A DNA stretch of 64,000 bases. It comes from Yuukianura sp. NJ FZ-2021 (lineage: Eukaryota). The DNA is taken from positions 2,108,001-2,172,000 of the forward strand of contig CM102284.1 of NCBI GenBank assembly GCA_046563655.1, given 5' to 3'. Numbering within the stretch: the stretch's first letter is position 1; each line of letters opens with the position of its first letter. The position numbers were made by a program, and so were the translations under genes. The notes under the pieces are model-generated. The model saw only the letters and a program-made list of their open reading frames with translations. It was not told the origin of the DNA and made no database searches. Below are positions 14,232 through 51,345 of this stretch, piece by piece.

Positions 14232-16245
14232 TTATTTGAAAATGAATTTTGAGTAATCAAATGACCTTGCTTTGCGCCAATACTCAAAAGCTGAAAATGT
14301 AGCTATAGCGAATAACTTTCCTTCATTGTTTGACACCCATGACTTGGCAGCGGGATTATGTGGAATGACATTCGTTGACAGTGATTTGTCAATTTCAGCC
14401 ATATAAGCATCTTCCGCTTCCTTTGTCACAACGACAAACTTCTTCTTCTCAGTTGCCATTTGCTCCAAAAGTTGCATAGCATAGTTTGTCTGGGTTTCTA
14501 TCATAAATATGCACGTTGTTGTTCCAAGAAGCTGAATAAAAAGTTTGGTTAGGTTCGGTTACATTTTTATTCCAACTGCACAGTTCCTTGTGAATTTTAA
14601 ACTTTTTTTTACCCCAAATGGACCGCCAATGAAAAATAAATTTGGAGCCATTGTAGTGCACAGTGCGATGAAATTTCTCGGCCTATCTTTTTTCCAAATT
14701 TCCAAAACGTTTTGGCCATTGAGACCAATCATTTTCATTGGACCAAAAATTTCTTGTGACTTGAATCCAGTTGCCAGAATCAATATCTAAAAAATTAAAT
14801 AAAAAATTTAGTTTAATTTTTAACATTTGTACGAAAACTTTACACAAAAGATTTGCCAAATCTAGCAAACTTACATCCAATGGGGTTTCTTGTTCTCCAG
14901 TTGCAACCACGCCTGTCCGCGTGACCTCTGAAATTCCATTGAAGTGAACCGTGACCTTGTCCATAGCCAGAGCTGGAAAGTACGTGCTCGAAAATGATAT
15001 CACTTTGCATCCAAAATCATAGTTGGGCACAAGCTGCTTCCACAAATCTGGTTTTGCTTTGGTTTGTTCTTTAATAAAGTTCGTCGCCATTTCGGTCACT
15101 GTAAAATTAGTTACAGTTTACCAACATGCAAACTTATCCTTGAGCGAAACACGCTTGTACAGAAAACTTCTCAATTCTTGTGCTCACCTTGCTTGTTAGC
15201 TATGGATTGATGAACTGCCACTTTGGCTAAATCGTTAAATTTCCAGAAATAATTCCATCGATGCCATTTCATAACAAACGGAATATTTCTAAATGCCCAT
15301 TTCTTGAAAGTACTGTACTCGTAAATTTCTTTTGGCATCACCCAAGCCGTTTGGCGCTGAAACGAATGAAGCGTTTTCACTTTCTGCACAAGCGCAGGAA
15401 TTAATTGAACAGCAGTTGAGCCTGTACCGACAACACCGACGACTTTGCCCTCCAGGTCGACAGAATTGTCCCATTCGGCCGTATGAAAGCATGGGCCAGC
15501 AAAATGTTCAAAAATTTTGGGTTTGTTGGGTTGCCAAAGAGAATTGATTCCTGAAAAACTAAAATTGGGGCAATGTGAGAATTCAATCATTTGAGATAAA
15601 AGTTTTCAAGCTTACACAAAATCAAAATGTCTTTCTTCCTTGATTCCGTTGTCTCCTTTTGCAATAACCGTCCACTTGTTCGTGGCCTCATTCCAAGTCA
15701 CAGACTCAACTTCTGTTTTCAACTTCAAATGGTCGTAGAGTTCGTACTTCCGTGCCACTTTTTTCATATAACTCAAAATTTCAGATTGGCTTGCAAAATT
15801 TCTTGGCCAATCTTTGCAAAAGAATCAAAAACAAATTAAATTTTTCAGATTATTTTTAACACTTTCAGCAGGTTATACTAGGCCAAACTTAATGTAACTG
15901 TTATTAGGGTAACTAATAACACACTTTTTAGAACTGTGGAATTTGAATTTACCTGGATTTGGTTCGAATGACCATGAGTAGAAATGACTCGGAAAGTCAC
16001 ATTCGCTACCCGGGTAAACATTTGCAAGCCAGGCTCCTCCGATGTCTTCATTTTTTTCATAAATTGTAAATGTCTTCCACTTCAACGTTCGCTTGATTTG
16101 CAAAGCAACAGTAAGTCCAGCAAACCTAGGAGAAACAGTTAGGTTTGCAAAAAATGAACAAAAAGTTGAAAAGAAAACATGTATTAATTAAAAAATAATA
16201 AAAAACGAACCCAGCACCAAGGATACAAATTTCTGGTGTCCCCAT
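14232..16245 (-). CDS. Type I Baeyer-Villiger-type flavin monooxygenase, copy B (tandem paralog of copy A)
   Basis: Same motifs and intron positions as copy A (MGTPEICILGAG, FAGPCFHTAEWD, GTGSTAVQL, YDFGCKV); introns are more diverged than exons. Confidence 0.9.
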
Positions 16246-17005: not shown

Positions 17006-17835
17006 TCTACTTATATAAAATCGAGACCCTGTTTATCTGTGTGTGTGTGTGTGTGTCTGTTCCTCTACTCCTCCGAAACTACTGGACCGATTTGGACAAA
17101 TGAGGTGTCTTTTTCTTCGTCAGGTCACCCCGAAGAGCGTAGGCTATGTCACATGCTGATCTGACCTTTGACCTTTGACCCAGCGCACTGACCTCATGCG
17201 AAATCAGAGGAAACATAGGCATGTAATATGTCAATCGAAAGGGTAGGTCAAATGAAGTCGATTGACGTTTCACATGATGATCTCTGACCTTTGACCTTTG
17301 ACCCAGAGCAGTGACCTCATGCGAAATCAAAGGAAACATAGGCATGTGATATACCATTTGAACGGGGAGGTTGAAAGGAGTTGATTGACGTATGACACGA
17401 TGATCTATGACCTTTGACCCTTGACCCAGAGCGGTGACCTCATATAGAATTAAGCTGAACATAGGCAAGTGACATGTCATTCGAAAGCAGAGGCTAAATG
17501 CAGTCGATTGATGTATAACATGTTAACCTGTGACATTTGACCCTTGACCCAGAGCGGTGACCTCACATAAAATTAAACCAAACACAAGCAAGTGACATTC
17601 CGTCATTCGAATGGTCATGTCCTTCCTACACGTTAAACATTAATCAGGTGGACGGGTTGTTTTAAGGGATTTCCGCCTGGGCAAATGGTAATGCAAGATA
17701 GCTTCATGAAAATAAATGATACTAATGTATCTCAAACGGGTAACGGGTTCCCAAAAGTGATACGTGTTTCTATGTGTGTCCGTATACACTACCACAAAAG
17801 CTAGCCCCGCTTTCACAAGCGGGTATCATACCTTG
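17006..17835 (+). mobile_element. Non-autonomous Helitron-like element with internal 123-bp tandem repeats
   Basis: Starts A|TCTACTTATATAAAA followed by a (GT)n microsatellite and ccgaaactactggaccgattt; 3' hairpin CCCGCTT-tcac-AAGCGGG (17806-17823) then CTTG|T; internal repeats starting tgacctttgacc at 17162, 17285, 17408, 17531. Confidence 0.7.
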
Positions 17836-18344: not shown

Positions 18345-19017
18345 TTATCGTGGTGATCCAAACACGCATGTCCAGTATGTTTTGTACTGGCAGTTGGACC
18401 TGTTGCACTCCACAAAGTGACAGCCGACGTTTTTGAAGTCGCCGAGGATATTCCTTCGGTGACCGTCGGATTTGATCCAGCTTTCCATGACTTGCTTACA
18501 GCTTCCTTGACCCGCGGCAATGTTTTCACCAACTGAACTCCAAACGTAGCCTTCATTAGTAACACGTTGGCCAAGTCTCGGTTCTCCGTTGCACTGGTGA
18601 CTAAAACATCGCGTATCGGCCATCAATTGATTGTGCTTACGAGCAGCAGCTACCAACTAAAATTATAAAGCAAATAAAAGCTTATAAAAAGTTTTCTTTA
18701 AAATTTCAAAGTTACAATGAGATGGTAAAAAAAAATTCTGTACTTTGCTGTCGGGAGTGAGATTGGGTTTATTGTTTTGACTTCTGTAATTGTTATGTTC
18801 TCGGAGACAAACCGAAGCAGGTTCGGCTTGTCTTTCTAAAAATTCCGCTAAAATTTAAAAAAAAAATACATAAATATAAACATAATTCAAATTTGAGAGA
18901 AAAAAAATTGCTTTTTTAGTTCTTGCCAGGAAAAATAGCTTCCTCAAGGAAGTTGGTCTCAGCGTCCTCTGCCATGACAGAAGCCATAACGCATAAAATT
19001 ACGAAAAATTTAACCAT
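18345..19017 (-). CDS. Secreted CAP/SCP (PR-1-like) domain protein of bacterial type, 3 exons
   Basis: MVKFFVILCVMASVMAEDAE signal; HNNYR, AARKHNQLM, FSH, VGENIAAGQ, WIKSDGHRRNIL, YWT.VFG motifs; intron 1 (18848-18926) is GC-AG, intron 2 is GT-AG. Confidence 0.85.
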
Positions 19018-19439
19018 GGTTTTCGCTCACAATAAATTTTTACGAGAAAATTGGAATAAACTTTTAATTAAAAGGAAACTCGTACAGGATATTTATACTC
19101 TTCTTACTTCTACAAACACCTTTCGACCGAACTTCCGCTTCTGTTTTGAATTCATTGGAAATCAACAATATTTCAAACGCCATAAATTCAATCTTGACCA
19201 CAAGTACAATTAATGGCACACATCACTTTTGTTCTGCACAAAATTTATGATTGAATAAGGCAGAAACTAACAATTGGACAATTTCAGAAAAGAAACGAAG
19301 TGACGACAATTGAAAACCATAGAAATACTTTTTCCTACTAGAAATTTTTACCCGTAAGTTTTCAATTTTCAGCCATTGTCCACATTGCCAAAGGATGGTT
19401 TTGGTTAAGGGGCTCATTTTGGCCCACCAAAAAATGACA

Positions 19440-19536
19440 GATGTGCATGTTGCAGGAACGTAAAATTTTCAAGTTAAGTTCATGGAACATCGATATTGAA
19501 GTTGTCTAATTTTTACGTTCCTGCACCATGCACATC
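19440..19536. repeat. Short foldback / MITE-like inverted repeat (~28-bp arms)
   Basis: gatgtgcatgttgcaggaacgtaaaatt versus aatttttacgttcctgcaccatgcacatc (near-perfect reverse complement). Confidence 0.65.
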
Positions 19537-20029
19537 ATATCGATATCTATTTCACAATAATGACGATTTTGGAAGATTTTGGGTCGGAGAACTCCAAAAC
19601 TAGCAGGTAATCACCATGGCAACCAACATTTTATGCCCGTATACATAATGACGGTTCACCCGTAACCTACGGATCAGGATTTGGTGAGACCGATCCGGGG
19701 GTCAGGATCACACTAATCCGTGAACGGTTACATAATATAATCTTGAGCGGTGGATTTGTAAATCCGGTTCACCTGAACGTGATCATCGGATTACTCATTT
19801 TTACATGCCACATTTAAATACTTCAACAACAATGTATTATGTTGATTAAAAATGTGACAAGTTTAATGCTCCTTTTATTTTCAGGTGGCAAAGTTTTCAA
19901 ACTTTCTATAACACAACACCATTTTTGTTGTGTTTTATTAAAGTAATTAAGGAAATAGTTAATGATTCAATTAATTTCTGAACAAAATAGGAAACTAATG
20001 GGACAAAATGCGGCCATGCTGTGCATATA

Positions 20030-23000
20030 CTGCGCAAGCACTGCGCAAGTACTGCGCAAGCACTGCGCAAGCACTGCGCACTGCGCAAGTACTGCGCAAG
20101 CACTAGGCACGGCGCAAGCACTGCGCAAGCACTGCGCACTGCGCAAGTACTGCGCAAGCACTGCGCACTGCGCAAGTACTGCGCAAGCACTGCGCACTGC
20201 GCAAGTACTGCGCAAGCACTGCGCAAGCACTGCGCACTGCGCAAGTACTGCGCAAGCACTGCGCACTGCGCAAGTACTGCGCAAGCACTGCGCACTGCGC
20301 AAGTACTGCGCAAGCCCTAGGCACGGCGCAAGCACTGCGCACTGCGCAAGTACTGCGCAAGCACTGCGCACTGCGCAAGTACTGCGCACTGCGCAAGTAC
20401 TGCGCAAGCACTGCGCACTGCGCAAGCACTGCGCAAGCACTGCGCACTGCGCAAGTACTGCGCAAGCACTGCGCACTGCGCAAGTACTGCGCAAGCACTA
20501 GGCACGGCGCAAGCACTGCGCACTGCGCAAGTACTGCGCAAGCACTGCGCACTGCGCAAGTACTGCGCAAGCACTGCGCACTGCGCAAGTACTGCGCACT
20601 AGTAGGAAAATCACTCTTTTTAAATAACATAATTGGAAATTCCAAAACGTTAAAACTTTAGTAGGAAAATCACTCTTTTTAAATAACATAATTGAAAACT
20701 CCAAAACGTTAACAATTTAGTAGGAAAATCACTCTTTTTAAATAACATAATTGGAAATTCCAAAACGTTAACAATTTAGTAGGAAAATCACTCTTTTTAA
20801 ATAACATAATTGGAAATTCCAAAACGTTAAAACTTTAGTAGGAAAATCACTCTTTTTAAATAACATAATTGAAAATTCCAAAACGTTAAAAATTTAGTAG
20901 GAAAATCACTCTTTTTAAATAACATAATTGAAAATTCCAAAACGTTAAAAATTTAGTAGGAAAATCACTCTTTTTAAATAACATAATTGGAAATTCCAAA
21001 ACGTTAAAACTTTAGTAGGAAAATCAAGTACTGCGCAAGTACTGCGCAAGCACTGCGCACTGCGCACTGCGCACTGCGCAAGTACTGCGCAAGCACTGCG
21101 CAAGCACTGCGCAAGCACTGCGCACTGCGCAAGTACTGCGCAAGCACTGCGCAAGCACTGCGCAAGCACTGCGCAAGCACTGCGCAAGCACTGCGCAAGC
21201 ACTGCGCAAGCACTGCGCAAGCACTGCGCACTGCGCAAGTACTGCGCACTGCGCAAGTACTGCGCACTGCGCAAGCACTGCGCAAGTACTGCGCAAGCAC
21301 TGCGCACTGCGCAAGTACTGCGCAAGCACTGCGCACTGCGCAAGTACTGCGCAAGCACTGCGCACTGCGCAAGTACTGCGCAAGCACTGCGCAAGCACTG
21401 CGCACTGCGCAAGTACTGCGCAAGCACTGCGCACTGCGCAAGTACTGCGCAAGCACTAGGCACGGCGCAAGCACTGCGCACTGCGCAAGTACTGCGCAAG
21501 CACTGCGCACTGCGCACTGCGCAAGTACTGCGCAAGCACTGCGCACTGCGCACTGCGCAAGTACTGCGCAAGCACTGCGCACTGCGCAAGTACTGCGCAC
21601 TAGTAGGAAAATCACTCTTTTTAAATAACATAATTGGAAATTCCAAAACGTTAACAATTTAGCAGGAAAATCACTCTTTTTAAATAACATAATTGGAAAT
21701 TCCAAAACGTTAACAATTTAGTAGGAAAATCACTCTTTTTAAATAACATAATTGGAAATTCCAAAACGTTAACAATTTAGTAGGAAAATCACTCTTTTTA
21801 AATAACATAATTGAAAATTCCAAAACGTTAAAAATTTAGTAGGAAAATCACTCTTTTTAAATAACATAATTGAAAATTCCAAAACGTTAAAAATTTAGTA
21901 GGAAAATCACTCTTTTTAAATAACATAATTGAAAATTCCAAAACGTTAAAAATTTAGTAGGAAAATCACTCTTTTTAAATAACATAATTGAAAATTCCAA
22001 AACGTTAAAAATTTAGTAGGAAAATCACTCTTTTTAAATAACATAATTGGAAATTCCAAAACGTTAAAACTTTAGTAGGAAAATCAAGTACTGCGCAAGT
22101 ACTGCGCAAGCACTGCGCACTGCGCACTGCGCACTGCGCAAGTACTGCGCAAGCACTGCGCAAGCACTGCGCACTGCGCAAGTACTGCGCAAGCACTGCG
22201 CAAGCACTGCGCAAGCACTGCGCAAGCACTGCGCAAGCACTGCGCACTGCGCAAGTACTGCGCACTGCGCAAGTACTGCGCACTGCGCAAGCACTGCGCA
22301 AGTACTGCGCAAGCACTGCGCACTGCGCAAGTACTGCGCAAGCACTGCGCACTGCGCAAGTACTGCGCAAGCACTGCGCACTGCGCAAGTACTGCGCACT
22401 AGTAGGAAAATCACTCTTTTTAAATAACATAATTGGAAATTCCAAAACGTTAACAATTTAGCAGGAAAATCACTCTTTTTAAATAACATAATTGGAAATT
22501 CCAAAACGTTAACAATTTAGCAGGAAAATCACTCTTTTTAAATAACATAATTGGAAATTCCAAAACGTTAACAATTTAGTAGGAAAATCACTCTTTTTAA
22601 ATAACATAATTGGAAATTCCAAAACGTTAACAATTTAGTAGGAAAATCACTCTTTTTAAATAACATAATTGAAAATTCCAAAACGTTAAAAATTTAGTAG
22701 GAAAATCACTCTTTTTAAATAACATAATTGAAAATTCCAAAACGTTAAAAATTTAGTAGGAAAATCACTCTTTTTAAATAACATAATTGGAAATTCCAAA
22801 ACGTTAAAACTTTAGTAGGAAAATCACTCTTTTTAAATAACATAATTGAAAACTCCAAAACGTTAACAATTTAGTAGGAAAATCACTCTTTTTAAATAAC
22901 ATAATTGGAAATTCCAAAACGTTAAAACTTTAATAGGAAAATCACTCTTTTTAAATAACATAATTGAAAATTCCAAAACGTTAAAAATTTAGTAGGAAAA

Positions 23001-26000
23001 TCACTCTTTTTAAATAACATAATTGGAAATTCCAAAACGTTAAAACTTTAGTAGGAAAATCATTCTTTTTAAATAACATAATTGAAAACTCCAAAACGTT
23101 AAAACTTTAGTAGGAAAATCACTCTTTTTAAATAACATAATTGAAAATTCCAAAACGTTAAAAATTTAGTAGGAAAATCACTCTTTTTAAATAACATAAT
23201 TGGAAATTCCAAAACGTTAACAATGTAGTAGGAAAATCACTCTTTTTAAATAACATAATTGAAAATTCCAAAACGTTAAAAATTTAGTAGGAAAATCACT
23301 CTTTTTAAATAACATAATTGGAAATTCCAAAACGTTAAAACTTTAGTAGGAAAATCAAGTACTGCGCAAGCACTGCGCAAGTACTGCGCAAGTACTGCGC
23401 AAGCACTGCGCATTGCGCAAGTACTGCGCAAGCACTGCGCACTGCGCAAGTACTGCGCAAGCACTGCGCACTGCGCAAGTACTGCGCAAGCACTGCGCAC
23501 TGCGCAAGTACTGCGCACTGCGCAAGCACTGCGCAAGTACTGCGCAAGCACTGCGCACTGCGCAAGCACTGCGCAAGCACTGCGCAAGCACTGCGCAAGC
23601 ACTGCGGAAGCACTGCGCAAGCACTGCGCAAGTACTGCGCAAGCACTGCGCACTGCGCAAGTACTGCGCAAGCACGGCGCACTGCGCAAGTACTGCGCAA
23701 GCACTGCGTACTGCGCAAGTACTGCGCACTGCGCACTGCGCAAGTACTGCGCAAGCACTGCGCACTGCGCAAGTACTGCGCAAGCACTGCGCACTGCGCA
23801 AGCACTGCGCAAGTACTGCGCAAGCACTGCGCAAGCACTGCGCACTGCGCAAGTACTGCGCACTAGTAGGAAAATCACTCTTTTTAAATAACATAATTGG
23901 AAATTCCAAAACGTTAAAACTTTAGTAGGAAAATCACTCTTTTTAAATAACATAATTGAAAACTCCAAAACGTTAACAATTTAGTAGGAAAATCACTCTT
24001 TTTAAATAACATAATTGGAAATTCCAAAACGTTAAAACTTTAGTAGGAAAATCACTCTTTTTAAATAACATAATTGAAAACTCCAAAACGTTAACAATTT
24101 AGTAGGAAAATCACTCTTTTTAAATAACATAATTGGAAATTCCAAAACGTTAAAACTTTAGTAGGAAAATCACTCTTTTTAAATAACATAATTGAAAACT
24201 CCAAAACGTTAACAATTTAGTAGGAAAATCACTCTTTTTAAATAACATAATTGGAAATTCCAAAACGTTAACAATTTAGTAGGAAAATCACTCTTTTTAA
24301 ATAACATAATTGGAAATTCCAAAACGTTAAAACTTTAGTAGGAAAATCACTCTTTTTAAATAACATAATTGAAAATTCCAAAACGTTAAAAATTTAGTAG
24401 GAAAATCACTCTTTTTAAATAACATAATTGAAAATTCCAAAACGTTAAAAATTTAGTAGGAAAATCACTCTTTTTAAATAACATAATTGGAAATTCCAAA
24501 ACGTTAAAACTTTAGTAGGAAAATCAAGTACTGCGCAAGTACTGCGCAAGCACTGCGCACTGCGCACTGCGCACTGCGCAAGTACTGCGCAAGCACTGCG
24601 CAAGCACTGCGCACTGCGCAAGTACTGCGCAAGCACTGCGCAAGCACTGCGCAAGCACTGCGCAAGCACTGCGCAAGCACTGCGCAAGCACTGCGCAAGC
24701 ACTGCGCACTGCGCAAGTACTGCGCACTGCGCAAGCACTGCGCAAGTACTGCGCAAGCACTGCGCAAGCACTGCGCACTGCGCAAGTACTGCGCAAGCAC
24801 TGCGCACTGCGCAAGTACTGCGCAAGCACTGCGCACTGCGCAAGTACTGCGCAAGCACTGCGCAAGCACTGCGCAAGCACTGCGCACTGCGCAAGTACTG
24901 CGCAAGCACTAGGCACGGCGCAAGCACTGCGCACTGCGCAAGTACTGCGCAAGCACTGCGCACTGCGCACTGCGCAAGTACTGCGCAAGCACTGCGCACT
25001 GCGCACTGCGCAAGTACTGCGCAAGCACTGCGCACTGCGCAAGTACTGCGCACTAGTAGGAAAATCACTCTTTTTAAATAACATAATTGGAAATTCCAAA
25101 ACGTTAACAATTTAGTAGGAAAATCACTCTTTTTAAATAACATAATTGGAAATTCCAAAACGTTAACAATTTAGTAGGAAAATCACTCTTTTTAAATAAC
25201 ATAATTGAAAATTCCAAAACGTTAAAAATTTAGTAGGAAAATCACTCTTTTTAAATAACATAATTGAAAATTCCAAAACGTTAAAAATTTAGTAGGAAAA
25301 TCACTCTTTTTAAATAACATAATTGGAAATTCCAAAACGTTAAAACTTTAGTAGGAAAATCACTCTTTTTAAATAACATAATTGAAAACTCCAAAACGTT
25401 AACAATTTAGTAGGAAAATCACTCTTTTTAAATAACATAATTGGAAATTCCAAAACGTTAAAACTTTAGTAGGAAAATCACTCTTTTTAAATAACATAAT
25501 TGAAAATTCCAAAACGTTAAAAATTTAGTAGGAAAATCACTCTTTTTAAATAACATAATTGGAAATTCCAAAACGTTAAAAATTTAGTAGGAAAATCACT
25601 CTTTTTAAATAACATAATTGGAAATTCCAAAACGTTAAAACTTTAGTAGGAAAATCAAGTACTGCGCAAGTACTGCGCAAGCACTGCGCACTGCGCACTG
25701 CGCACTGCGCAAGTACTGCGCAAGCACTGCGCAAGCACTGCGCAAGCACTGCGCACTGCGCAAGTACTGCGCAAGCACTGCGCAAGCACTGCGCACTGCG
25801 CACTGCGCAAGCACTGCGCAAGTACTGCGCAAGCACTGCGCACTGCGCAAGTACTGCGCAAGCACTGCGCACTGCGCAAGTACTGCGCAAGTACTGCGCA
25901 AGCACTGCGCACTGCGCAAGTACTGCGCAAGCACTGCGCACTGCGCAAGTACTGCGCAAGCACTGCGCAAGCACTGCGCAAGCACTGCGCACTGCGCAAG

Positions 26001-29000
26001 TACTGCGCAAGCACTGCGCACTGCGCAAGTACTGCGCAAGCACTAGGCACGGCGCAAGCACTGCGCACTGCGCAAGTACTGCGCAAGCACTGCGCACTGC
26101 GCACTGCGCAAGTACTGCGCAAGCACTGCGCACTGCGCACTGCGCAAGTACTGCGCAAGCACTGCGCACTGCGCAAGTACTGCGCACTAGTAGGAAAATC
26201 ACTCTTTTTAAATAACATAATTGGAAATTCCAAAACGTTAACAATTTAGCAGGAAAATCACTCTTTTTAAATAACATAATTGGAAATTCCAAAACGTTAA
26301 CAATTTAGTAGGAAAATCACTCTTTTTAAATAACATAATTGGAAATTCCAAAACGTTAACAATTTAGTAGGAAAATCACTCTTTTTAAATAACATAATTG
26401 AAAATTCCAAAACGTTAAAAATTTAGTAGGAAAATCACTCTTTTTAAATAACATAATTGAAAATTCCAAAACGTTAAAAATTTAGTAGGAAAATCACTCT
26501 TTTTAAATAACATAATTGGAAATTCCAAAACGTTAAAACTTTAGTAGGAAAATCACTCTTTTTAAATAACATAATTGAAAACTCCAAAACGTTAACAATT
26601 TAGTAGGAAAATCACTCTTTTTAAATAACATAATTGGAAATTCCAAAACGTTAAAACTTTAGTAGGAAAATCACTCTTTTTAAATAACATAATTGAAAAT
26701 TCCAAAACGTTAAAAATTTAGTAGGAAAATCACTCTTTTTAAATAACATAATTGGAAATTCCAAAACGTTAAAACTTTAGTAGGAAAATCATTCTTTTTA
26801 AATAACATAATTGAAAACTCCAAAACGTTAAAACTTTAGTAGGAAAATCACTCTTTTTAAATAACATAATTGAAAATTCCAAAACGTTAAAAATTTAGTA
26901 GGAAAATCACTCTTTTTAAATAACATAATTGGAAATTCCAAAACGTTAACAATGTAGTAGGAAAATCACTCTTTTTGAATAACATAATTGAAAATTCCAA
27001 AACGTTAAAAATTTAGTAGGAAAATCACTCTTTTTAAATAACATAATTGGAAATTCCAAAACGTTAAAACTTTAGTAGGAAAATCAAGTACTGCGCAAGC
27101 ACTGCGCAAGTACTGCGCAAGTACTGCGCAAGCACTGCGCACTGCGCAAGTACTGCGCAAGCACTGCGCACTGCGCAAGTACTGCGCAAGCACTGCGCAC
27201 TGCGCAAGTACTGCGCACTGCGCAAGCACTGCGCAAGTACTGCGCAAGCACGGCGCACTGCGCAAGTACTGCGCAAGCACTGCGCACTGCGCAAGTACTG
27301 CGCACTGCGCAAGTACTGCGCAAGCACTGCGCACTGCGCAAGTACTGCGCAAGCACTGCGCACTGCGCAAGCACTGCGCAAGTACTGCGCAAGCACTGCG
27401 CAAGCACTGCGCACTGCGCAAGTACTGCGCACTAGTAGGAAAATCACTCTTTTTAAATAACATAATTGGAAATTCCAAAACGTTAAAACTTTAGTAGGAA
27501 AATCACTCTTTTTAAATAACATAATTGAAAACTCCAAAACGTTAACAATTTAGTAGGAAAATCACTCTTTTTAAATAACATAATTGGAAATTCCAAAACG
27601 TTAAAACTTTAGTAGGAAAATCACTCTTTTTAAATAACATAATTGAAAACTCCAAAACGTTAACAATTTAGTAGGAAAATCACTCTTTTTAAATAACATA
27701 ATTGGAAATTCCAAAACGTTAACAATTTAGTAGGAAAATCACTCTTTTTAAATAACATAATTGGAAATTCCAAAACGTTAAAACTTTAGTAGGAAAATCA
27801 CTCTTTTTAAATAACATAATTGAAAATTCCAAAACGTTAAAAATTTAGTAGGAAAATCACTCTTTTTAAATAACATAATTGAAAATTCCAAAACGTTAAA
27901 AATTTAGTAGGAAAATCACTGTTTTTAAATAACATAATTGAAAATTCCAAAACGTTAAAAATTTAGTAGGAAAATCACTCTTTTTAAATAACATAATTGA
28001 AAATTCCAAAACGTTAAAAATTTAGTAGGAAAATCACTCTTTTTAAATAACATAATTGGAAATTCCAAAACGTTAAAACTTTAGTAGGAAAATCAAGTAC
28101 TGCGCAAGTACTGCGCAAGCACTGCGCACTGCGCACTGCGCACTGCGCAAGTACTGCGCAAGCACTGCGCAAGCACTGCGCACTGCGCAAGTACTGCGCA
28201 AGCACTGCGCAAGCACTGCGCAAGCACTGCGCAAGCACTGCGCACTGCGCAAGTACTGCGCACTGCGCAAGCACTGCGCAAGTACTGCGCAAGCACTGCG
28301 CACTGCGCAAGTACTGCGCACTGCGCAAGTACTGCGCAAGCACTGCGCACTGCGCAAGTACTGCGCAAGCACTGCGCACTGCGCAAGTACTGCGCAAGCA
28401 CTGCGCAAGCACTGCGCACTGCGCAAGTACTGCGCAAGCACTGCGCACTGCGCAAGTACTGCGCAAGCACTAGGCACGGCGCAAGCACTGCGCACTGCGC
28501 AAGTACTGCGCAAGCACTGCGCACTGCGCACTGCGCAAGTACTGCGCAAGCACTGCGCACTGCGCACTGCGCAAGTACTGCGCAAGCACTGCGCACTGCG
28601 CAAGTACTGCGCACTAGTAGGAAAATCACTCTTTTTAAATAACATAATTGGAAATTCCAAAACGTTAACAATTTAGTAGGAAAATCACTCTTTTTAAATA
28701 ACATAATTGGAAATTCCAAAACGTTAACAATTTAGTAGGAAAATCACTCTTTTTAAATAACATAATTGAAAATTCCAAAACGTTAAAAATTTAGTAGGAA
28801 AATCACTCTTTTTAAATAACATAATTGAAAATTCCAAAACGTTAAAAATTTAGTAGGAAAATCACTCTTTTTAAATAACATAATTGGAAATTCCAAAACG
28901 TTAAAACTTTAGTAGGAAAATCACTCTTTTTAAATAACATAATTGAAAACTCCAAAACGTTAACAATTTAGTAGGAAAATCACTCTTTTTAAATAACATA

Positions 29001-32000
29001 ATTGGAAATTCCAAAACGTTAAAACTTTAGTAGGAAAATCACTCTTTTTAAATAACATAATTGAAAATTCCAAAACGTTAAAAATTTAGTAGGAAAATCA
29101 CTCTTTTTAAATAACATAATTGGAAATTCCAAAACGTTAAAAATTTAGTAGGAAAATCACTCTTTTTAAATAACATAATTGGAAATTCCAAAACGTTAAA
29201 ACTTTAGTAGGAAAATCAAGTACTGCGCAAGTACTGCGCAAGCACTGCGCACTGCGCACTGCGCACTGCGCAAGTACTGCGCAAGCACTGCGCAAGCACT
29301 GCGCAAGCACTGCGCAAGCACTGCGCACTGCGCAAGTACTGCGCAAGCACTGCGCAAGCACTGCGCAAGCACTGCGCAAGCACTGCGCAAGCACTGCGCA
29401 AGCACTGCGCAAGCACTGCGCAAGCACTGCGCAAGCACTGCGCACTGCGCAAGTACTGCGCACTGCGCAAGTACTGCGCACTGCGCAAGCACTGCGCAAG
29501 TACTGCGCAAGCACTGCGCACTGCGCAAGTACTGCGCAAGCACTGCGCACTGCGCAAGTACTGCGCAAGTACTGCGCAAGCACTGCGCACTGCGCAAGTA
29601 CTGCGCAAGCACTGCGCACTGCGCAAGTACTGCGCAAGCACTGCGCAAGCACTGCGCACTGCGCAAGTACTGCGCAAGCACTGCGCACTGCGCAAGTACT
29701 GCGCAAGCACTAGGCACGGCGCAAGCACTGCGCACTGCGCAAGTACTGCGCAAGCACTGCGCACTGCGCAAGTACTGCGCAAGCACTGCGCACTGCGCAC
29801 TGCGCAAGTACTGCGCAAGCACTGCGCACTGCGCAAGTACTGCGCACTAGTAGGAAAATCACTCTTTTTAAATAACATAATTGGAAATTCCAAAACGTTA
29901 ACAATTTAGCAGGAAAATCACTCTTTTTAAATAACATAATTGGAAATTCCAAAACGTTAACAATTTAGTAGGAAAATCACTCTTTTTAAATAACATAATT
30001 GGAAATTCCAAAACGTTAACAATTTAGTAGGAAAATCACTCTTTTTAAATAACATAATTGAAAATTCCAAAACGTTAAAAATTTAGTAGGAAAATCACTC
30101 TTTTTAAATAACATAATTGAAAATTCCAAAACGTTAAAAATTTAGTAGGAAAATCACTCTTTTTAAATAACATAATTGGAAATTCCAAAACGTTAAAACT
30201 TTAGTAGGAAAATCACTCTTTTTAAATAACATAATTGAAAACTCCAAAACGTTAACAATTTAGTAGGAAAATCACTCTTTTTAAATAACATAATTGGAAA
30301 TTCCAAAACGTTAAAACTTTAGTAGGAAAATCACTCTTTTTAAATAACATAATTGAAAATTCCAAAACGTTAAAAATTTAGTAGGAAAATCACTCTTTTT
30401 AAATAACATAATTGGAAATTCCAAAACGTTAAAACTTTAGTAGGAAAATCATTCTTTTTAAATAACATAATTGAAAACTCCAAAACGTTAAAACTTTAGT
30501 AGGAAAATCACTCTTTTTAAATAACATAATTGAAAATTCCAAAACGTTAAAAATTTAGTAGGAAAATCACTCTTTTTAAATAACATAATTGGAAATTCCA
30601 AAACGTTAACAATGTAGTAGGAAAATCACTCTTTTTGAATAACATAATTGAAAATTCCAAAACGTTAAAAATTTAGTAGGAAAATCACTCTTTTTAAATA
30701 ACATAATTGGAAATTCCAAAACGTTAAAACTTTAGTAGGAAAATCAAGTACTGCGCAAGCACTGCGCAAGTACTGCGCAAGTACTGCGCAAGCACTGCGC
30801 ACTGCGCAAGTACTGCGCAAGCACTGCGCACTGCGCAAGTACTGCGCAAGCACTGCGCACTGCGCAAGTACTGCGCACTGCGCAAGCACTGCGCAAGTAC
30901 TGCGCAAGCACTGCGCACTGCGCAAGTACTGCGCAAGCACGGCGCACTGCGCAAGTACTGCGCAAGCACTGCGCACTGCGCAAGTACTGCGCACTGCGCA
31001 CTGCGCAAGTACTGCGCAAGCACTGCGCACTGCGCAAGTACTGCGCAAGCACTGCGCACTGCGCAAGCACTGCGCAAGTACTGCGCAAGCACTGCGCAAG
31101 CACTGCGCACTGCGCAAGTACTGCGCACTAGTAGGAAAATCACTCTTTTTAAATAACATAATTGGAAATTCCAAAACGTTAAAACTTTAGTAGGAAAATC
31201 AAGTACTGCGCAAGCACTGCGCAAGTACTGCGCAAGTACTGCGCAAGCACTGCGCACTGCGCAAGTACTGCGCAAGCACTGCGCACTGCGCAAGTACTGC
31301 GCAAGCACTGCGCACTGCGCAAGTACTGCGCACTGCGCAAGCACTGCGCAAGTACTGCGCAAGCACTGCGCACTGCGCAAGTACTGCGCAAGCACGGCGC
31401 ACTGCGCAAGTACTGCGCAAGCACTGCGCACTGCGCAAGTACTGCGCACTGCGCACTGCGCAAGTACTGCGCAAGCACTGCGCACTGCGCAAGTACTGCG
31501 CAAGCACTGCGCACTGCGCAAGCACTGCGCAAGTACTGCGCAAGCACTGCGCAAGCACTGCGCACTGCGCAAGTACTGCGCACTAGTAGGAAAATCACTC
31601 TTTTTAAATAACATAATTGGAAATTCCAAAACGTTAAAACTTTAGTAGGAAAATCAAGTACTGCGCAAGCACTGCGCAAGTACTGCGCAAGCACTGCGCA
31701 CTGCGCACTGCGCAAGTACTGCGCAAGCACTGCGCACTGCGCAAGTACTGCGCACTAGTAGGAAAATCACTCTTTTTAAATAACATAATTGGAAATTCCA
31801 AAACGTTAACAATTTAGCAGGAAAATCACTCTTTTTAAATAACATAATTGGAAATTCCAAAACGTTAAAAATTTAGTAGGAAAATCACTCTTTTTAAATA
31901 ACATAATTGAAAATTCCAAAACGTTAAAAATTTAGTAGGAAAATCACTCTTTTTAAATAACATAATTGGAAATTCCAAAACGTTAAAACTTTAGTAGGAA

Positions 32001-35000
32001 AATCACTCTTTTTAAATAACATAATTGAAAACTCCAAAACGTTAACAATTTAGTAGGAAAATCACTCTTTTTAAATAACATAATTGGAAATTCCAAAACG
32101 TTAAAACTTTAGTAGGAAAATCACTCTTTTTAAATAACATAATTGAAAATTCCAAAACGTTAAAACTTTAGTAGGAAAATCACTCTTTTTAAATAACATA
32201 ATTGAAAACTCCAAAACGTTAACAATTTAGTAGGAAAATCACTCTTTTTAAATAACATAATTGGAAATTCCAAAACGTTAAAACTTTAGTAGGAAAATCA
32301 CTCTTTTTAAATAACATAATTGAAAACTCCAAAACGTTAACAATTTAGTAGGAAAATCACTCTTTTTAAATAACATAATTGGAAATTCCAAAACGTTAAC
32401 AATTTAGTAGGAAAATCACTCTTTTTAAATAACATAATTGGAAATTCCAAAACGTTAAAACTTTAGTAGGAAAATCACTCTTTTTAAATAACATAATTGA
32501 AAATTCCAAAACGTTAAAAATTTAGTAAGAAAATCACTCTTTTTAAATAACATAATTGAAAATTCCAAAACGTTAAAAATTTAGTAGGAAAATCACTCTT
32601 TTTAAATAACATAATTGAAAATTCCAAAACGTTAAAAATTTAGTAGGAAAATCACTCTTTTTAAATAACATAATTGAAAATTCCAAAACGTTAAAAATTT
32701 AGTAGGAAAATCACTCTTTTTAAATAACATAATTGGAAATTCCAAAACGTTAAAACTTTAGTAGGAAAATCAAGTACTGCGCAAGTACTGCGCAAGCACT
32801 GCGCACTGCGCACTGCGCACTGCGCAAGTACTGCGCAAGCACTGCGCAAGCACTGCGCAAGCACTGCGCACTGCGCAAGTACTGCGCAAGCACTGCGCAA
32901 GCACTGCGCAAGCACTGCGCAAGCACTGCGCAAGCACTGCGCAAGCACTGCGCACTGCGCAAGTACTGCGCACTGCGCAAGTACTGCGCACTGCGCAAGT
33001 ACTGCGCAAGCACTGCGCAAGCACTGCGCACTGCGCAAGTACTGCGCAAGCACTGCGCACTGCGCAAGTACTGCGCAAGCACTAGGCACGGCGCAAGCAC
33101 TGCGCACTGCGCACTGCGCAAGTACTGCGCAAGCACTGCGCACTGCGCAAGTACTGCGCAAGCACTGCGCACTGCGCACTGCGCAAGTACTGCGCAAGCA
33201 CTGCGCACTGCGCAAGTACTGCGCACTAGTAGGAAAATCACTCTTTTTAAATAACATAATTGGAAATTCCAAAACGTTAACAATTTAGCAGGAAAATCAC
33301 TCTTTTTAAATAACATAATTGGAAATTCCAAAACGTTAACAATTTAGTAGGAAAATCACTCTTTTTAAATAACATAATTGGAAATTCCAAAACGTTAACA
33401 ATTTAGTAGGAAAATCACTCTTTTTAAATAACATAATTGAAAATTCCAAAACGTTAAAAATTTAGTAGGAAAATCACTCTTTTTAAATAACATAATTGAA
33501 AATTCCAAAACGTTAAAAATTTAGTAGGAAAATCACTCTTTTTAAATAACATAATTGGAAATTCCAAAACGTTAAAACTTTAGTAGGAAAATCACTCTTT
33601 TTAAATAACATAATTGAAAACTCCAAAACGTTAACAATTTAGTAGGAAAATCACTCTTTTTAAATAACATAATTGGAAATTCCAAAACGTTAAAACTTTA
33701 GTAGGAAAATCACTCTTTTTAAATAACATAATTGAAAATTCCAAAACGTTAAAAATTTAGTAGGAAAATCACTCTTTTTAAATAACATAATTGGAAATTC
33801 CAAAACGTTAAAACTTTAGTAGGAAAATCATTCTTTTTAAATAACATAATTGAAAACTCCAAAACGTTAAAACTTTAGTAGGAAAATCACTCTTTTTAAA
33901 TAACATAATTGAAAATTCCAAAACGTTAAAAATTTAGTAGGAAAATCACTCTTTTTAAATAACATAATTGGAAATTCCAAAACGTTAACAATGTAGTAGG
34001 AAAATCACTCTTTTTGAATAACATAATTGAAAATTCCAAAACGTTAAAAATTTAGTAGGAAAATCACTCTTTTTAAATAACATAATTGGAAATTCCAAAA
34101 CGTTAAAACTTTAGTAGGAAAATCAAGTACTGCGCAAGCACTGCGCAAGTACTGCGCAAGTACTGCGCAAGCACTGCGCACTGCGCAAGTACTGCGCAAG
34201 CACTGCGCACTGCGCAAGTACTGCGCAAGCACTGCGCACTGCGCAAGTACTGCGCACTGCGCAAGCACTGCGCAAGTACTGCGCAAGCACTGCGCACTGC
34301 GCAAGTACTGCGCAAGCACGGCGCACTGCGCAAGTACTGCGCAAGCACTGCGCACTGCGCAAGTACTGCGCACTGCGCACTGCGCAAGTACTGCGCAAGC
34401 ACTGCGCACTGCGCAAGTACTGCGCAAGCACTGCGCACTGCGCAAGCACTGCGCAAGTACTGCGCAAGCACTGCGCAAGCACTGCGCACTGCGCAAGTAC
34501 TGCGCACTAGTAGGAAAATCACTCTTTTTAAATAACATAATTGGAAATTCCAAAACGTTAAAACTTTAGTAGGAAAATCACTCTTTTTAAATAACATAAT
34601 TGAAAACTCCAAAACGTTAACAATTTAGTAGGAAAATCACTCTTTTTAAATAACATAATTGGAAATTCCAAAACGTTAAAACTTTAGTAGGAAAATCACT
34701 CTTTTTAAATAACATAATTGAAAACTCCAAAACGTTAACAATTTAGTAGGAAAATCACTCTTTTTAAATAACATAATTGGAAATTCCAAAACGTTAACAA
34801 TTTAGTAGGAAAATCACTCTTTTTAAATAACATAATTGGAAATTCCAAAACGTTAAAACTTTAGTAGGAAAATCACTCTTTTTAAATAACATAATTGAAA
34901 ACTCCAAAACGTTAACAATTTAGTAGGAAAATCACTCTTTTTAAATAACATAATTGGAAATTCCAAAACGTTAACAATTTAGTAGGAAAATCACTCTTTT

Positions 35001-36413
35001 TAAATAACATAATTGGAAATTCCAAAACGTTAAAACTTTAGTAGGAAAATCACTCTTTTTAAATAACATAATTGAAAATTCCAAAACGTTAAAAATTTAG
35101 TAGGAAAATCACTCTTTTTAAATAACATAATTGAAAATTCCAAAACGTTAAAAATTTAGTAGGAAAATCACTCTTTTTAAATAACATAATTGGAAATTCC
35201 AAAACGTTAAAACTTTAGTAGGAAAATCAAGTACTGCGCAAGTACTGCGCAAGCACTGCGCACTGCGCACTGCGCACTGCGCAAGTACTGCGCAAGCACT
35301 GCGCAAGCACTGCGCACTGCGCAAGTACTGCGCAAGCACTGCGCAAGCACTGCGCAAGCACTGCGCACTGCGCAAGTACTGCGCACTGCGCAAGTACTGC
35401 GCACTGCGCAAGCACTGCGCAAGTACTGCGCACTGCGCAAGCACTGCGCAAGTACTGCGCAAGCACTGCGCACTGCGCAAGTACTGCGCAAGCACTGCGC
35501 ACTGCGCAAGTACTGCGCAAGCACTGCGCACTGCGCAAGTACTGCGCAAGCACTGCGCAAGCACTGCGCACTGCGCAAGTACTGCGCAAGCACTGCGCAC
35601 TGCGCAAGTACTGCGCAAGCACTAGGCACGGCGCAAGCACTGCGCACTGCGCAAGTACTGCGCAAGCACTGCGCACTGCGCACTGCGCAAGTACTGCGCA
35701 AGCACTGCGCACTGCGCAAGTACTGCGCAAGCACTGCGCACTGCGCACTGCGCAAGCACTGCGCAAGTACTGCGCAAGCACTGCGCACTGCGCAAGTACT
35801 GCGCAAGCACTGCGCAAGCACTGCGCAAGCACTGCGCACTGCGCAAGCACTGCGCAAGCACTGCGCAAGCACTGCGCAAGCACTGCGCACTGCGCAAGTA
35901 CTGCGCACTGCGCAAGTACTGCGCACTGCGCAAGTACTGCGCACTGCGCAAGCACTGCGCAAGTACTGCGCAAGCACTGCGCACTGCGCAAGTACTGCGC
36001 AAGCACTGCGCACTGCTCAAGTACTGCGCAAGCACTGCGCACTGCGCAAGTACTGCGCAAGCACTGCGCACTGCGCAAGTACTGCGCAAGCACTGCGCAC
36101 TGCGCAAGTACTGCGCAAGCACTGCGCACTGCGCAAGTACTGCGCAAGCACTGCGCACTGCGCAAGTACTGCGCACTGCGCAAGTACTGCGCACTGCGCA
36201 AGTACTGCGCAAGCACTGCGCACTGCGCAAGTACTGCGCACTGCGCAAGTACTGCGCACTGCGCAAGTACTGCGCACTGCGCAAGTACTGCGCAAGCACT
36301 GCGCAAGCACTGCGCAAGCACTGCGCAAGCACTGCGCACTGCGCACTGCGCAAGCACTGCGCAAGCACTGCGCACTGCGCAAGTACTGCGCAAGCACTGC
36401 GCACTGCGCACTG
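20030..36413. repeat. Composite satellite: 15 GC-rich 7/11-bp minisatellite blocks alternating with 14 blocks of a 59-bp AT-rich tandem repeat
   Basis: GC units ACTGCGC, ACTGCGCAAGC, ACTGCGCAAGT; AT unit tagtaggaaaatcactctttttaaataacataattggaaattccaaaacgttaaaactt (59 bp). AT blocks at 20600-21025, 21601-22085, 22400-23356, 23864-24525, 25054-25656, 26188-27085, 27433-28094, 28615-29217, 29848-30745, 31129-31200, 31584-31655, 31756-32771, 33227-34124, 34508-35228. Confidence 0.97.
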
Positions 36414-37104
36414 CTTCGTCATAGTCAATTAACTGAATGTCAATCAAAATGCTTAAGCTCGAAATAGACATAGGTCAAGTGCTGTTGTGGAAATAAAAAT
36501 CGTTTTGTCCATGATCCAAGTGAATTTTCGTTTAGCATTTAAACGCTAAAAATATTGCCTTGGCGACAGGGTGTTACGTTATGTGTGAAACGTCACGAAA
36601 TGTTGGGCCCACGTTTTAACACTACGAGAAACGCGTTTGGGCCCAGTTTCCTATCCATTTCCAAACTCCTCCTTTAAGATCCCAAAATTTACTTTGAATT
36701 TAATTCGATGAGGTCAAACTTTTAAATGACTCATTTCGTTAGCTTCATTTTTATTGTTCAAAGTACATGAAATCAGCAAATTTGTTAACTTAAAAGTTGA
36801 TGAACTATTTGTTGTTTTTTTTCCGTTTTTTTAAATTGTACAACTTACAACTAATTGAACATTTTTTAATTGCATTTTTGTTTCCGTCAATACAAAAAAA
36901 AATACAACTAATTACACGGGAAATAACGATGCCAAAACTAAAAACAATTATCAAAATCAGAAACAAACGCAGGAAGTTTTACCCTTATCATAATCGATTA
37001 CTAATTTTGATTAAACTGTTCAATACACAGGATATGTGTAGTTAACTGAATTTGTTTTACATTACTTTTAGTCAAGTGGCAATTTTCATCCTAAAGTAAA
37101 GAAA

Positions 37105-50346: not shown

Positions 50347-51345
50347 ATGAAGGTAGTTTTTGTATTGATGGTTGCATTCGTCGGTTGCGCCGTAAGCGCA
50401 AGTCTGCCAGGACCTAAAGCTGCTGCTGCTAGCAGTAGTGTGTCTGGTAGTGACAAAACCTCGAGTACCGTTAGTGGCAGCAATACATCTGGTACGGACA
50501 AGTCTTCTGTTTCATCTAACGATCGCACTGTGTCTTCTGGGACGGACAAGACTTCTAGCTCAGTCGGCAGCAGTGTATCTGGTACGGACAAGTCTTCTGT
50601 TTCATCTAACGATCGCACTTTGTCGTCTGGGACGGACAAGACTTCTAGCTCAGTCGGCAGCAGTGTATCAGGTACGGACAAGAGTTCTGTTTCATCCAAC
50701 GATCGCAGTGTGTCGTCTGGGACGGACAAAACTTCTAGCTCAGTCGGCAGCAGTGTATCTGGTACGGATAAGAGTTCTGTTTCATCTAACGATCGCACTG
50801 TGTCGTCTGGGACGGACAAGACTTCTAGTTCAGTCGGCAGCAGTGTATCCGGTACGGACAAGAGTTCTGTTTCATCTAACGATCGTACTCTGTCATCTGG
50901 GACGGACAAAACTTCTAGCTCAGTCGGCAGCAGTGTATCTGGTACGGACAAGAGTTCTGTTTCATCTAACGATCGCAGTGTGTCGTCTGGGACGGACAAA
51001 ACTTCTAGCTCAGTCGGCAGCAGTGTATCCGGTACGGACAAGTCTTCTGTTTCATCTAACGATCGCAGTGTGTCGTCTGGGACGGACAAAACTTCTAGCT
51101 CCGTCGGCAGCAGTGTATCCGGTACGGATAAGAGTTCTGTTTCATCTAACGATCGCACTGTGTCGTCTGGGACGGACAAGACTTCTAGTTCAGTCGGCAG
51201 CAGTGTATCCGGTACGGACAAGAGTTCTGTCTCATCTAACGATCGCACTGTGTCGTCTGGGACGGACAAGACTTCCAGTTCAGTCGGCAGCAGTGTATCT
51301 GGTACGGACAAGACTTCTGTTTCATCTAACGATAAGGTCGCCTAG
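50347..51345 (+). CDS. Secreted Ser/Thr-rich repetitive structural protein (9 x 30-aa repeats)
   Basis: Signal MKVVFVLMVAFVGCAVSA; 90-bp repeats starting at 50491 encoding GTDKSSVSSNDRTVSSGTDKTSSSVGSSVS; variation between copies is mostly synonymous in this frame; upstream TATA/Inr. Confidence 0.85.
   Translation: MKVVFVLMVAFVGCAVSASLPGPKAAAASSSVSGSDKTSSTVSGSNTSGTDKSSVSSNDRTVSSGTDKTSSSVGSSVSGTDKSSVSSNDRTLSSGTDKTSSSVGSSVSGTDKSSVSSNDRSVSSGTDKTSSSVGSSVSGTDKSSVSSNDRTVSSGTDKTSSSVGSSVSGTDKSSVSSNDRTLSSGTDKTSSSVGSSVSGTDKSSVSSNDRSVSSGTDKTSSSVGSSVSGTDKSSVSSNDRSVSSGTDKTSSSVGSSVSGTDKSSVSSNDRTVSSGTDKTSSSVGSSVSGTDKSSVSSNDRTVSSGTDKTSSSVGSSVSGTDKTSVSSNDKVA

Follow-up and report, generated by a model that had tools for sequence, protein, structure and literature searches.

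A recently amplified composite tandem repeat of alternating GC-rich and AT-rich blocks between two genes of Yuukianura sp. NJ FZ-2021

How does an array arise in which two unrelated tandem repeats alternate block by block through base-identical junctions, and does its structure call for a function? These questions are raised by a 16.4-kb composite array in a stretch of 64,000 nucleotides of the genome of Yuukianura sp. NJ FZ-2021 (GenBank assembly GCA_046563655.1, contig CM102284.1, positions 2,108,001 to 2,172,000), hereafter the window; searches for junction and repeat strings cover this 64-kb window, and all positions below are counted from its first letter. The array consists of GC-rich blocks built of 7-bp and 11-bp units and AT-rich blocks built of a 59-bp unit. 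We regard it, with good confidence, as a very young, hierarchically amplified composite tandem repeat between divergent genes that is most likely neutral or selfish. No function is needed to explain its structure.

Layout of the array and its junctions

Tandem Repeats Finder resolves the interval from about 20028 to 36414 into a repeat of period 59 (95-97% matches) interleaved with repeats of periods 7, 11, 18, 29 and 40. By direct string search, a 30-nt string spanning the GC-to-AT junction and a 27-nt string spanning the AT-to-GC junction each occur 14 times, in strict alternation and every one inside 20587-35239, and both edges of the array lie in GC repeat (left edge 20028-20030, right edge 36413-36414). 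A preliminary description had claimed 15 GC blocks alternating with 14 AT blocks, both junctions invariant and GC repeat at either end; the block counts are exact, the junction strings are identical in 14/14 cases of each kind, and the edges lie as it said. By the coordinates of that description the array is exactly 2^14 bp long, which, with edges uncertain by 1-2 bp, we regard as a coincidence. GC skew and AT skew are constant throughout, so all units of the array stand in one orientation. Blocks measure anything between 72 and 1185 bp and follow no constant period. Chance need not be taken seriously as an explanation.

Every AT block comprises a whole number (n) of 59-bp units followed by 13 bp, which matches the earlier count to the unit. 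From the first block to the fourteenth, the lengths are 426, 485, 957, 662, 603, 898, 662, 603, 898, 72, 72, 1016, 898 and 721 bp, corresponding to n = 7, 8, 16, 11, 10, 15, 11, 10, 15, 1, 1, 17, 15 and 12 (149 units), and the terminal 13-mer is identical in 14/14 blocks. The units had been called near-identical, and copies are indeed nearly free of substitutions; as a refinement, 14 variants of the 59-mer can be told apart among the 149 units, four of which (A, B, C and D) account for 125. Strings of these variants define three types of block: type I (ADADCABBA-like; AT blocks 1, 4, 7 and 14), type IIa (CCBBADABIA or CECBBBBA; AT blocks 2, 5 and 8) and type IIb (CECBBADABAFBGHA-like; AT blocks 3, 6, 9 and 13). 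AT5 is identical to AT8, and AT6 to both AT9 and AT13. Copy number had also been described as varying freely inside the blocks. Lengths do vary, but because the variants stand in fixed orders and the blocks are of recurring types, copy number is not wholly free. An AT-block strand has a folding energy of -16.7 kcal/mol, which its shuffles match (z = 0).

The 15 GC blocks (100-1185 bp, GC content 0.61-0.63) are built of the 7-bp unit ACTGCGC and the 11-bp unit AAGY+ACTGCGC, and can be written as strings of three tokens, T = AAGTACTGCGC, C = AAGCACTGCGC and z = ACTGCGC. Eight blocks (GC blocks 2, 3, 5, 6, 8, 9, 13 and 15) start TTCzzzTCC and are termed alpha; five (GC blocks 4, 7, 10, 11 and 14) start TCTTC and are termed beta, and the short GC12 starts TCT. 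GC block 1, at the left edge, was left unclassified. The token strings of GC10, GC11 and GC14 are identical. The GC repeat was not found in the window outside the main array. A 250-nt GC-block strand folds at -94 kcal/mol through GCGC stems (z = -3.46), and none of 200 shuffles is as stable. Protein coding by the array was considered and rejected: stop codons occur in the AT units, and their period of 59 bp is not divisible by 3; the long open frames that run across GC blocks are a by-product of a stop-poor repeat.

Three nested levels of repetition

Repetition in the array is nested at three levels, namely the 7-, 11- and 59-bp units, composites of one GC and one AT block of ~1.1 kb, and a higher-order repeat of 3.3-3.7 kb made of three composites. 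The order [GC, I, alpha, IIa, alpha, IIb] occurs three times in succession and is followed by a rearranged tail (Table 1). GC and AT types are coupled across the junctions: all seven internal alpha GC blocks are followed by an AT block that begins with 59-mer unit C, and 5/6 beta blocks by one that begins with unit A, the exception being GC12, which precedes the hybrid AT12. The third level was missed by the preliminary description, as was the likely origin of the 59-mer as transposon cargo discussed below. The array resembles higher-order repeat satellites in that ordered sub-units are repeated as a block, with higher identity from block to block than among the sub-units. It departs from the long, homogeneous and usually heterochromatic or centromeric form of such satellites, being 16.4 kb long with ~4.5 copies and exons close by.

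Copies at these levels are separated by almost no substitutions, in accord with the earlier claim of very recent amplification. Exact repeats reach 1477 bp (29725-31201 = 33104-34580), with others of 1158 bp in three copies and of 888 bp, and these repeats span both junction types. GC6+AT6 and GC9+AT9 differ at 0 of 1411 aligned positions, and GC9..GC10 and GC13..GC14 at 0 of 1729. Between higher-order copies 2 and 3 there are 3505 matches and 13 mismatches in 3518 aligned columns (99.6% identity), and 12 of the 13 mismatches arise from the forced alignment of AT4 with AT7, which are equal in length and differ in unit order; all 10 gap events fall in GC blocks. The tandem duplication of GC10+AT10 as GC11+AT11 is supported by an exact match of 563 bp at an offset of 455. 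With gaps concentrated in GC blocks and mismatches nearly absent, these alignments indicate that whole units are gained or lost far more rapidly than bases are substituted, above all in the GC blocks. The stable hairpins of the GC strand would fit replication slippage and out-of-register exchange as the mechanism.

A single fusion and the source of the 59-bp unit

Each GC block that precedes an AT block ends in ...CzT+'AC' and each that follows one begins with a T unit (14/14 in both cases). Read across an AT block, the GC array is in register, lacking at most 5 nt (TGCGC) of one z unit, and the joins are ambiguous by 1 nt (T) and 2 nt (CA). Read directly, the junctions show neither a target-site duplication nor any sequence foreign to the two repeats. 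A degenerate 11-mer in the flank, immediately beyond the left edge, agrees with the GC unit at 8/11 positions, as is usual for a minisatellite grown locally. With GC flanks in register and GC repeat at both ends, these features indicate that a pure 59-bp array was joined once, non-homologously, into a resident GC minisatellite. The preliminary description had likewise proposed a single insertion into an unrelated GC minisatellite, and the identical junctions bear it out. Given 1-2 nt of microhomology, no target-site duplication and no transposon ends, we infer that the join was made by end-joining or template switching and not by transposition.

Contigs of public sequencing runs show that the 59-mer is no local peculiarity. 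Words of 19300-21300 occur in six runs, and contigs of four of these were compared with 31560-32300 and match it, here X1 (9168 contigs), X2 (1536), X5 (133) and X6 (21). Those of X1 fall into bands of ≥99% (1163), 95-99% (2822) and 90-95% identity (5183), and at least six loose contig ends pass from 59-mer into differing foreign sequences. These contig numbers, identity bands and loose ends indicate that the 59-mer belongs to an abundant, diverse and dispersed family. The same contigs bear on the array itself. The unique left flank joined to GC repeat recurs as a loose end in X1, X2 and X5, the last of which belongs to a different study, bears a different organism label and has a flank in which a single letter departs from the window, so the left boundary is real in independent data. 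Bins over both GC-to-AT junctions in 31560-32300 are covered in X1 and X2; X5, with no cover in bins 31760-31809 just past the junction, and X6, which matches mainly the GC part, are uninformative here. All of these are short-word contigs, which are blind to block order and total length, and depths added up over them give no copy numbers.

A second array of the family, inverted, lies 5 kb from the main array and directly adjoins a (GTCC/GTCT)n microsatellite (Table 1). Its unit beside the microsatellite is of the main-array type, whereas the other 11 of its 12 units carry two changes found in 0/149 main units. The second array was therefore rejected as the donor of the insert in its present form and is, judging by these changes, a relative. 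The first base of the main AT blocks and of the second array is the same position of the 59-mer (T of TAGTAGG), and their last unit breaks off after 13 nt and 6 nt, respectively. A shared start phase has a chance of ~1 in 59, and it is only suggestive, because a 6-nt unit fragment beside the second array blurs its boundary. Together with its surroundings this array forms a candidate HINE-like element (41240-42262), HINEs being non-autonomous Helentron elements, with a left-flank microsatellite followed by central tandem repeats in the fixed orientation of that class. An 11-nt inverted pair (41243-41253 / 42224-42234, 1 mismatch) is one of nine inverted pairs in 1.2 kb, and the hairpins after its two arms are no better than shuffles (z = 0.22 and -0.17); the stem at 41346-41365 is the only hairpin of the candidate that beats them (z = -2.47). 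Elements of the HINE / DINE-1 class would be expected to carry subterminal inverted repeats of 11-13 bp, an inverted repeat near the 5' one and a 3' palindrome, and to occur as many dispersed copies with conserved ends, inserted at TT without a target-site duplication; the run contigs show 59-mer arrays beside several foreign sequences but no element ends.

A parallel is the Pacific oyster element Cg_HINE, whose left flank holds a GTCY/GTCC/GTCK microsatellite besides a subterminal inverted repeat with a complementary inverted repeat close to it; tandem repeats come next, and the right flank after them again has a subterminal inverted repeat, with a palindrome. In some copies two unrelated arrays follow one another (Vojvoda Zeljko et al., PMC7492417). 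Features of DINE-1/HINE elements are given in PMC4067079, whose references name lepidopteran MITEs (miniature inverted-repeat transposable elements) with "hitchhiking (GTCY)n microsatellites", and in the clam element DTC84 repeat variants occupy fixed positions inside the arrays (PMC3879986). The neighbouring element shares the succession of (GTCY)n directly followed by a tandem array, the 59-mer family shares the dispersal, and the main array shares with DTC84, which is grouped with the pearl MITEs of bivalves, the fixed positions of repeat variants within blocks (PMC3879986). The main array differs from Cg_HINE in lacking transposon ends, in its monomer (59 against 138-181 bp), in its 149 units against an average of at most 5 per element, and in a GC partner that is not a 4-nt microsatellite. 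On this evidence the 59-bp source family is probably a cargo repeat of HINE elements.

Searches for the units elsewhere were negative. The 26-nt core of the 59-mer has no exact match in metagenome, prokaryote genome or viral contigs, nor a 29-nt GC-repeat word in metagenome contigs; the interval 17000-43000 has 0 Rfam matches at gathering thresholds; and four unit strings (both strands) were not found in full-text literature, a search blind to sequences that appear only in figures or supplements.

We propose the following history. A CpG-rich minisatellite of 7-bp and 11-bp units would already have been resident at the locus, and a piece of pure 59-bp array from the abundant dispersed family would have been joined into one of its 7-bp units. 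The junctions and register of the array show this fusion to have been a single event. The GC+AT composite would then have been duplicated by out-of-register exchange between GC or AT arrays, giving units of ~1.1 kb and from these the three-unit higher-order repeat of 3.3-3.7 kb, now present in ~4.5 copies. Change in length by whole units would be ongoing, fastest in the GC blocks, where GCGC-stem hairpins would favour slippage. The array in its present form shows both of these later steps. Because later exchanges would all have taken place inside the arrays, the junctions stay unchanged and every AT block keeps the form n x 59 + 13. The invariant junctions, the in-register GC flanks, the dispersal of the 59-mer as against the GC repeat, and the near absence of substitutions lend good support to a single fusion and very recent amplification after it.

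Table 1. Positions in the window of the composite array, its blocks and higher-order copies, and neighbouring features
Feature	Position	Strand	Evidence or remark
Composite array, 16,384 bp	20030-36413	+	15 GC blocks (7411 bp) + 14 AT blocks (8973 bp)
Higher-order copy 1: GC1 (edge), AT1 I, GC2 alpha, AT2 IIa, GC3 alpha, AT3 IIb	20030-23356	+	
Higher-order copy 2, 3729 bp: GC4 beta, AT4 I, GC5 alpha, AT5 IIa, GC6 alpha, AT6 IIb	23357-27085	+	
Higher-order copy 3, 3660 bp: GC7 beta, AT7 I, GC8 alpha, AT8 IIa, GC9 alpha, AT9 IIb	27086-30745	+	
Rearranged tail: two beta blocks each with one-unit AT, GC12 + AT12, GC13, AT13 IIb, GC14, AT14 I, GC15	30746-36413	+	
Exact 455-bp tandem duplication, GC10+AT10 = GC11+AT11, each AT = one unit + 13 bp	30746-31655	+	
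GC block 1, 570 bp, left edge	20030-20599	+	degenerate 11-mer (8/11 positions) just outside in flank
AT block 1, 7 units + 13 bp, ADCABBA	20600-21025	+	junction strings, variant string
GC block 2, 575 bp, alpha	21026-21600	+	token string
AT block 2, 8 units + 13 bp, CECBBBBA	21601-22085	+	junction strings, variant string
GC block 3, 314 bp, alpha	22086-22399	+	token string
AT block 3, 16 units + 13 bp	22400-23356	+	junction strings, variant string
GC block 4, 507 bp, beta	23357-23863	+	token string
AT block 4, 11 units + 13 bp, ADADADCABBA	23864-24525	+	junction strings, variant string
GC block 5, 528 bp, alpha	24526-25053	+	token string
AT block 5, 10 units + 13 bp, CCBBADABIA	25054-25656	+	junction strings, variant string
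GC block 6, 531 bp, alpha	25657-26187	+	token string
AT block 6, 15 units + 13 bp, CECBBADABAFBGHA	26188-27085	+	junction strings, variant string
GC block 7, 347 bp, beta	27086-27432	+	token string
AT block 7, 11 units + 13 bp, ADADCABBKBA	27433-28094	+	junction strings, variant string
GC block 8, 520 bp, alpha	28095-28614	+	token string
AT block 8, 10 units + 13 bp, = AT5	28615-29217	+	junction strings, variant string
GC block 9, 630 bp, alpha	29218-29847	+	token string
AT block 9, 15 units + 13 bp, = AT6	29848-30745	+	junction strings, variant string
GC block 12, 100 bp, shortest	31656-31755	+	token string
AT block 12, 17 units + 13 bp, hybrid: type II-like start, type I-like end	31756-32771	+	
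GC block 13, 455 bp, alpha	32772-33226	+	token string
AT block 13, 15 units + 13 bp, = AT6 and AT9	33227-34124	+	junction strings, variant string
GC block 14, 383 bp, beta	34125-34507	+	token string
AT block 14, 12 units + 13 bp, ADADCADCABBA	34508-35228	+	junction strings, variant string
GC block 15, 1185 bp, right edge, alpha-type start	35229-36413	+	token string
CAP-domain gene exon, 5' side towards array	18345-18656	-	PF00188, E 4.6e-14, profile positions 24-117
First trypsin-domain exons of serine protease gene, 5' side towards array	37277-37477, 37535-38140	+	PF00089, profile positions 1-39, 37-112
Candidate non-autonomous element, HINE-like, with tentative ends: left flank, microsatellite, tandem repeats, right flank	41240-42262	+	
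(GTCC/GTCT)n microsatellite, directly adjoins second 59-bp array	41373-41426	+	
Second 59-bp-family array, inverted, 12 units (9 exactly 59 bp)	41427-42134	-	~94% identical to main array

Setting, alternatives and known systems

The array was said to lie in gene-dense DNA, and genes do flank it, Pfam-supported exons being no more than 1.4 kb away on its left side and 0.9 kb on its right. The 5' sides of both neighbouring genes, encoding a CAP-domain protein and a trypsin-like serine protease, face the array, which would thus be intergenic between divergent genes. Other genes of the window encode a PAN domain, flavin monooxygenase (FMO)-like enzymes, a putative phosphatase, a ZIP transporter, an epoxide hydrolase and a Sulf-like sulfatase. 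They mark the genome as that of an animal; the sulfatase exon falls in protein clusters labelled Eukaryota, with Chordata commonest. Two minus-strand exons ~5 kb apart (10122-10583 and 15171-15605) match the same part of an FMO-like profile (162-223), which suggests tandemly duplicated flavin monooxygenase-like genes.

Further repeats occur in the window. Just upstream of the HINE-like element, 40619-41236 holds an 11-bp minisatellite, ACCAACAACAT / ACCCGCAACAT (43 copies, 86% matches), and a 53-bp direct duplication, so the second 59-bp array lies within ~350 bp of an 11-bp minisatellite unrelated in sequence to the GC units; on inspection, the 11-bp array (40619-41092) has no convincing similarity to them and was rejected as a relative. 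Another module of microsatellite plus tandem repeat, at 17009-17565, consists of a (TG)n tract (~17040-17058) and then a 123-bp repeat in 3.4 copies, with many GACCTTTGACC motifs. A motif common to the sequences before the two microsatellites (17009-17023 and 41355-41370) was also rejected, being too short and, as a degenerate pattern, matching only one site. A 90-bp tandem repeat at 50476-51333 (9.5 copies, 93% matches) may be a repetitive coding exon. Frames without a stop for 339-349 codons run through it, at least two on the plus strand and one on the minus strand, the latter giving an acidic 30-residue repeat (…SLDETELLSVPDTLLPTELEVLSVPDDTVR…); Pfam matches are all sub-threshold.

Three other explanations of the array have to be weighed. 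Read in the orientation of the neighbouring element, each unit is a short-period GC repeat followed by a 59-bp array, like the microsatellite and tandem repeats of a HINE. With the identical start base of the main and neighbouring arrays, this favours a reading in which the array consists of tandem rolling-circle (Helentron/HINE) copies made by read-through or re-initiation, each GC+AT unit being a truncated element and the GC minisatellite its left-flank microsatellite. Microsatellite units of up to 8 nt are reported for Cg_HINE (PMC7492417), and tandem arrays of truncated Helitrons produced by rolling-circle replication have been described (PMC8268682). The published model, however, predicts retained 5' ends (PMC8268682), and element termini, at least the 5' end, are absent from the units of the main array, which hold two repeats only, with no subterminal inverted repeat, 3' palindrome or flank module; because they hold no element ends, this route to truncated Helitron arrays does not fit. 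The flanks of the main array have no similarity to those of the neighbouring element, GC repeat stands at both array ends with no right flank after the last AT block, and the three-unit order and whole-unit length changes fit exchange between arrays better. We consider a rolling-circle origin unlikely. An assembly artefact, in which two abundant repeats were wrongly interleaved or over-expanded, has in its favour that the run contigs contain both repeat types in great numbers and that exact repeats of 1.1-1.5 kb can mislead assemblers. Exact repeats of up to 1.5 kb are, however, shorter than current accurate long reads. Against an artefact stand the ordered, non-random variant structure with its unique blocks (AT3, AT12, GC4 and GC15), the boundary between flank and GC repeat in contigs of three runs and two studies, and the covered GC-to-AT junction bins of X1 and X2, and we judge it very unlikely.

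The third explanation is that the array is a selected functional element, either a boundary or spacer or a length-variable regulatory array, whose effect would come from the alternation of CpG-dense with A-tract chromatin or from repeated palindromes to which proteins bind. The two genes, which encode predicted secreted-type proteins, have the array in their shared upstream region, within ~0.9 kb of the first trypsin-domain exon, and CpG density switches about six-fold between blocks, from 122 CpG in the 1185 bp of GC block 15 to 17 in the 1016 bp of AT block 12 (GC content 0.226, one CpG per unit); the CpG observed/expected ratio of the flanks is 0.85-0.95. The palindrome TTGGAA-A-TTCCAA, which may resemble Rel/NF-kB sites, is present in units A, C, E, G, I and L (81/149), but it is destroyed in the common B and D units (57/149). 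The highly irregular block lengths, from 72 to 1185 bp without a fixed period, make a phased function less likely; this irregularity and an array of only 16 kb between two genes both weigh against the roles that had been suggested, in patterning nucleosomes or methylation or as a centromere-like or boundary element. Exact junction invariance and lengths of the form 'n x unit + constant' are not evidence of function, because both follow from a single fusion and exchange within arrays, and the near lack of substitutions shows an array too young to reveal conservation. A selected function thus appears quite improbable. A broader view would see a satellite caught at birth, in which an end-less 59-bp array of transposon cargo was captured by a CpG-dense, hairpin-prone minisatellite, the substrate of the recombination by which the chimera expands, and in which the length-hypervariable array in the upstream region common to both genes acts as a tunable spacer, boundary or array of binding sites that alters expression of the CAP-domain and trypsin-like genes between individuals; this is unlikely.

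Several points weigh against a young, most likely neutral or selfish composite repeat as we describe it. Total length, block count and block order come solely from the assembly. The HINE origin of the 59-mer draws on one neighbouring copy with undefined ends, whose array, as its letters now stand, cannot be the direct donor, and the 59-bp monomer is much shorter than the 138-181 bp of oyster HINE cargo (PMC7492417). Neutrality, that is, lack of function, is assumed. One X2 contig, with a loose end at 31745, passes from GC repeat into a 59-mer-like but different sequence with a join phase unlike that of the array junctions, which hints that GC repeat and 59-mer-like DNA may also adjoin at another locus or allele.

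Known systems resemble the array in part. Composite elements or super-repeats of the complete human genome, such as ajax-teucer, consist of units of different repeats including a variable internal array and are attributed to unequal crossing-over (bioRxiv 10.1101/2021.07.12.451456). The array likewise has a unit of different repeats with an internal array of variable length, in tandem, whose units evolve together; its core units appear to have been amplified by unequal crossing-over and not by transposition. It differs in that both components are short-period arrays, in its extra three-unit level, in its length of only 16 kb and in belonging to another animal. Formally it is not such an element, because it is built of just two sequence families, one the 7/11-bp GC units and the other the 59-bp unit, as against at least three by definition. 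In human Yq12, DYZ1 and DYZ2 arrays alternate in blocks of variable length (bioRxiv 10.1101/2022.12.01.518658), and here too two unrelated satellites, one GC-richer and CpG-denser and the other AT-rich, alternate in widely variable blocks with local expansion and contraction. Yq12, however, is megabase-scale heterochromatin with units of 2.4-3.5 kb on a non-recombining chromosome, whereas the present array is 16 kb long and flanked by genes, has units of 7, 11 and 59 bp, and its boundaries are all base-identical. Satellite growth from arrays inside Helitron/Helentron elements has been reviewed (PMC12628747), and the path from the short internal array of a mobile element to a long array without functional transposon ends would be common to both; here, unlike there, the array expanded as a chimera whose other part, a minisatellite already resident, provided the homology that amplification needs.

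The array opens no new class of element and is an ordinary example of the growth of satellite DNA. For annotation of the genome, it flags a probably length-polymorphic 16-kb insertion between two gene starts, and in satellite biology it stands as a clean counterpart, at small scale, of the blocks that alternate in human Yq12. The locus is a base-by-base record of the assembly of a complex satellite, with one non-homologous fusion, three nested levels of amplification and almost no point mutations to obscure the sequence of events.

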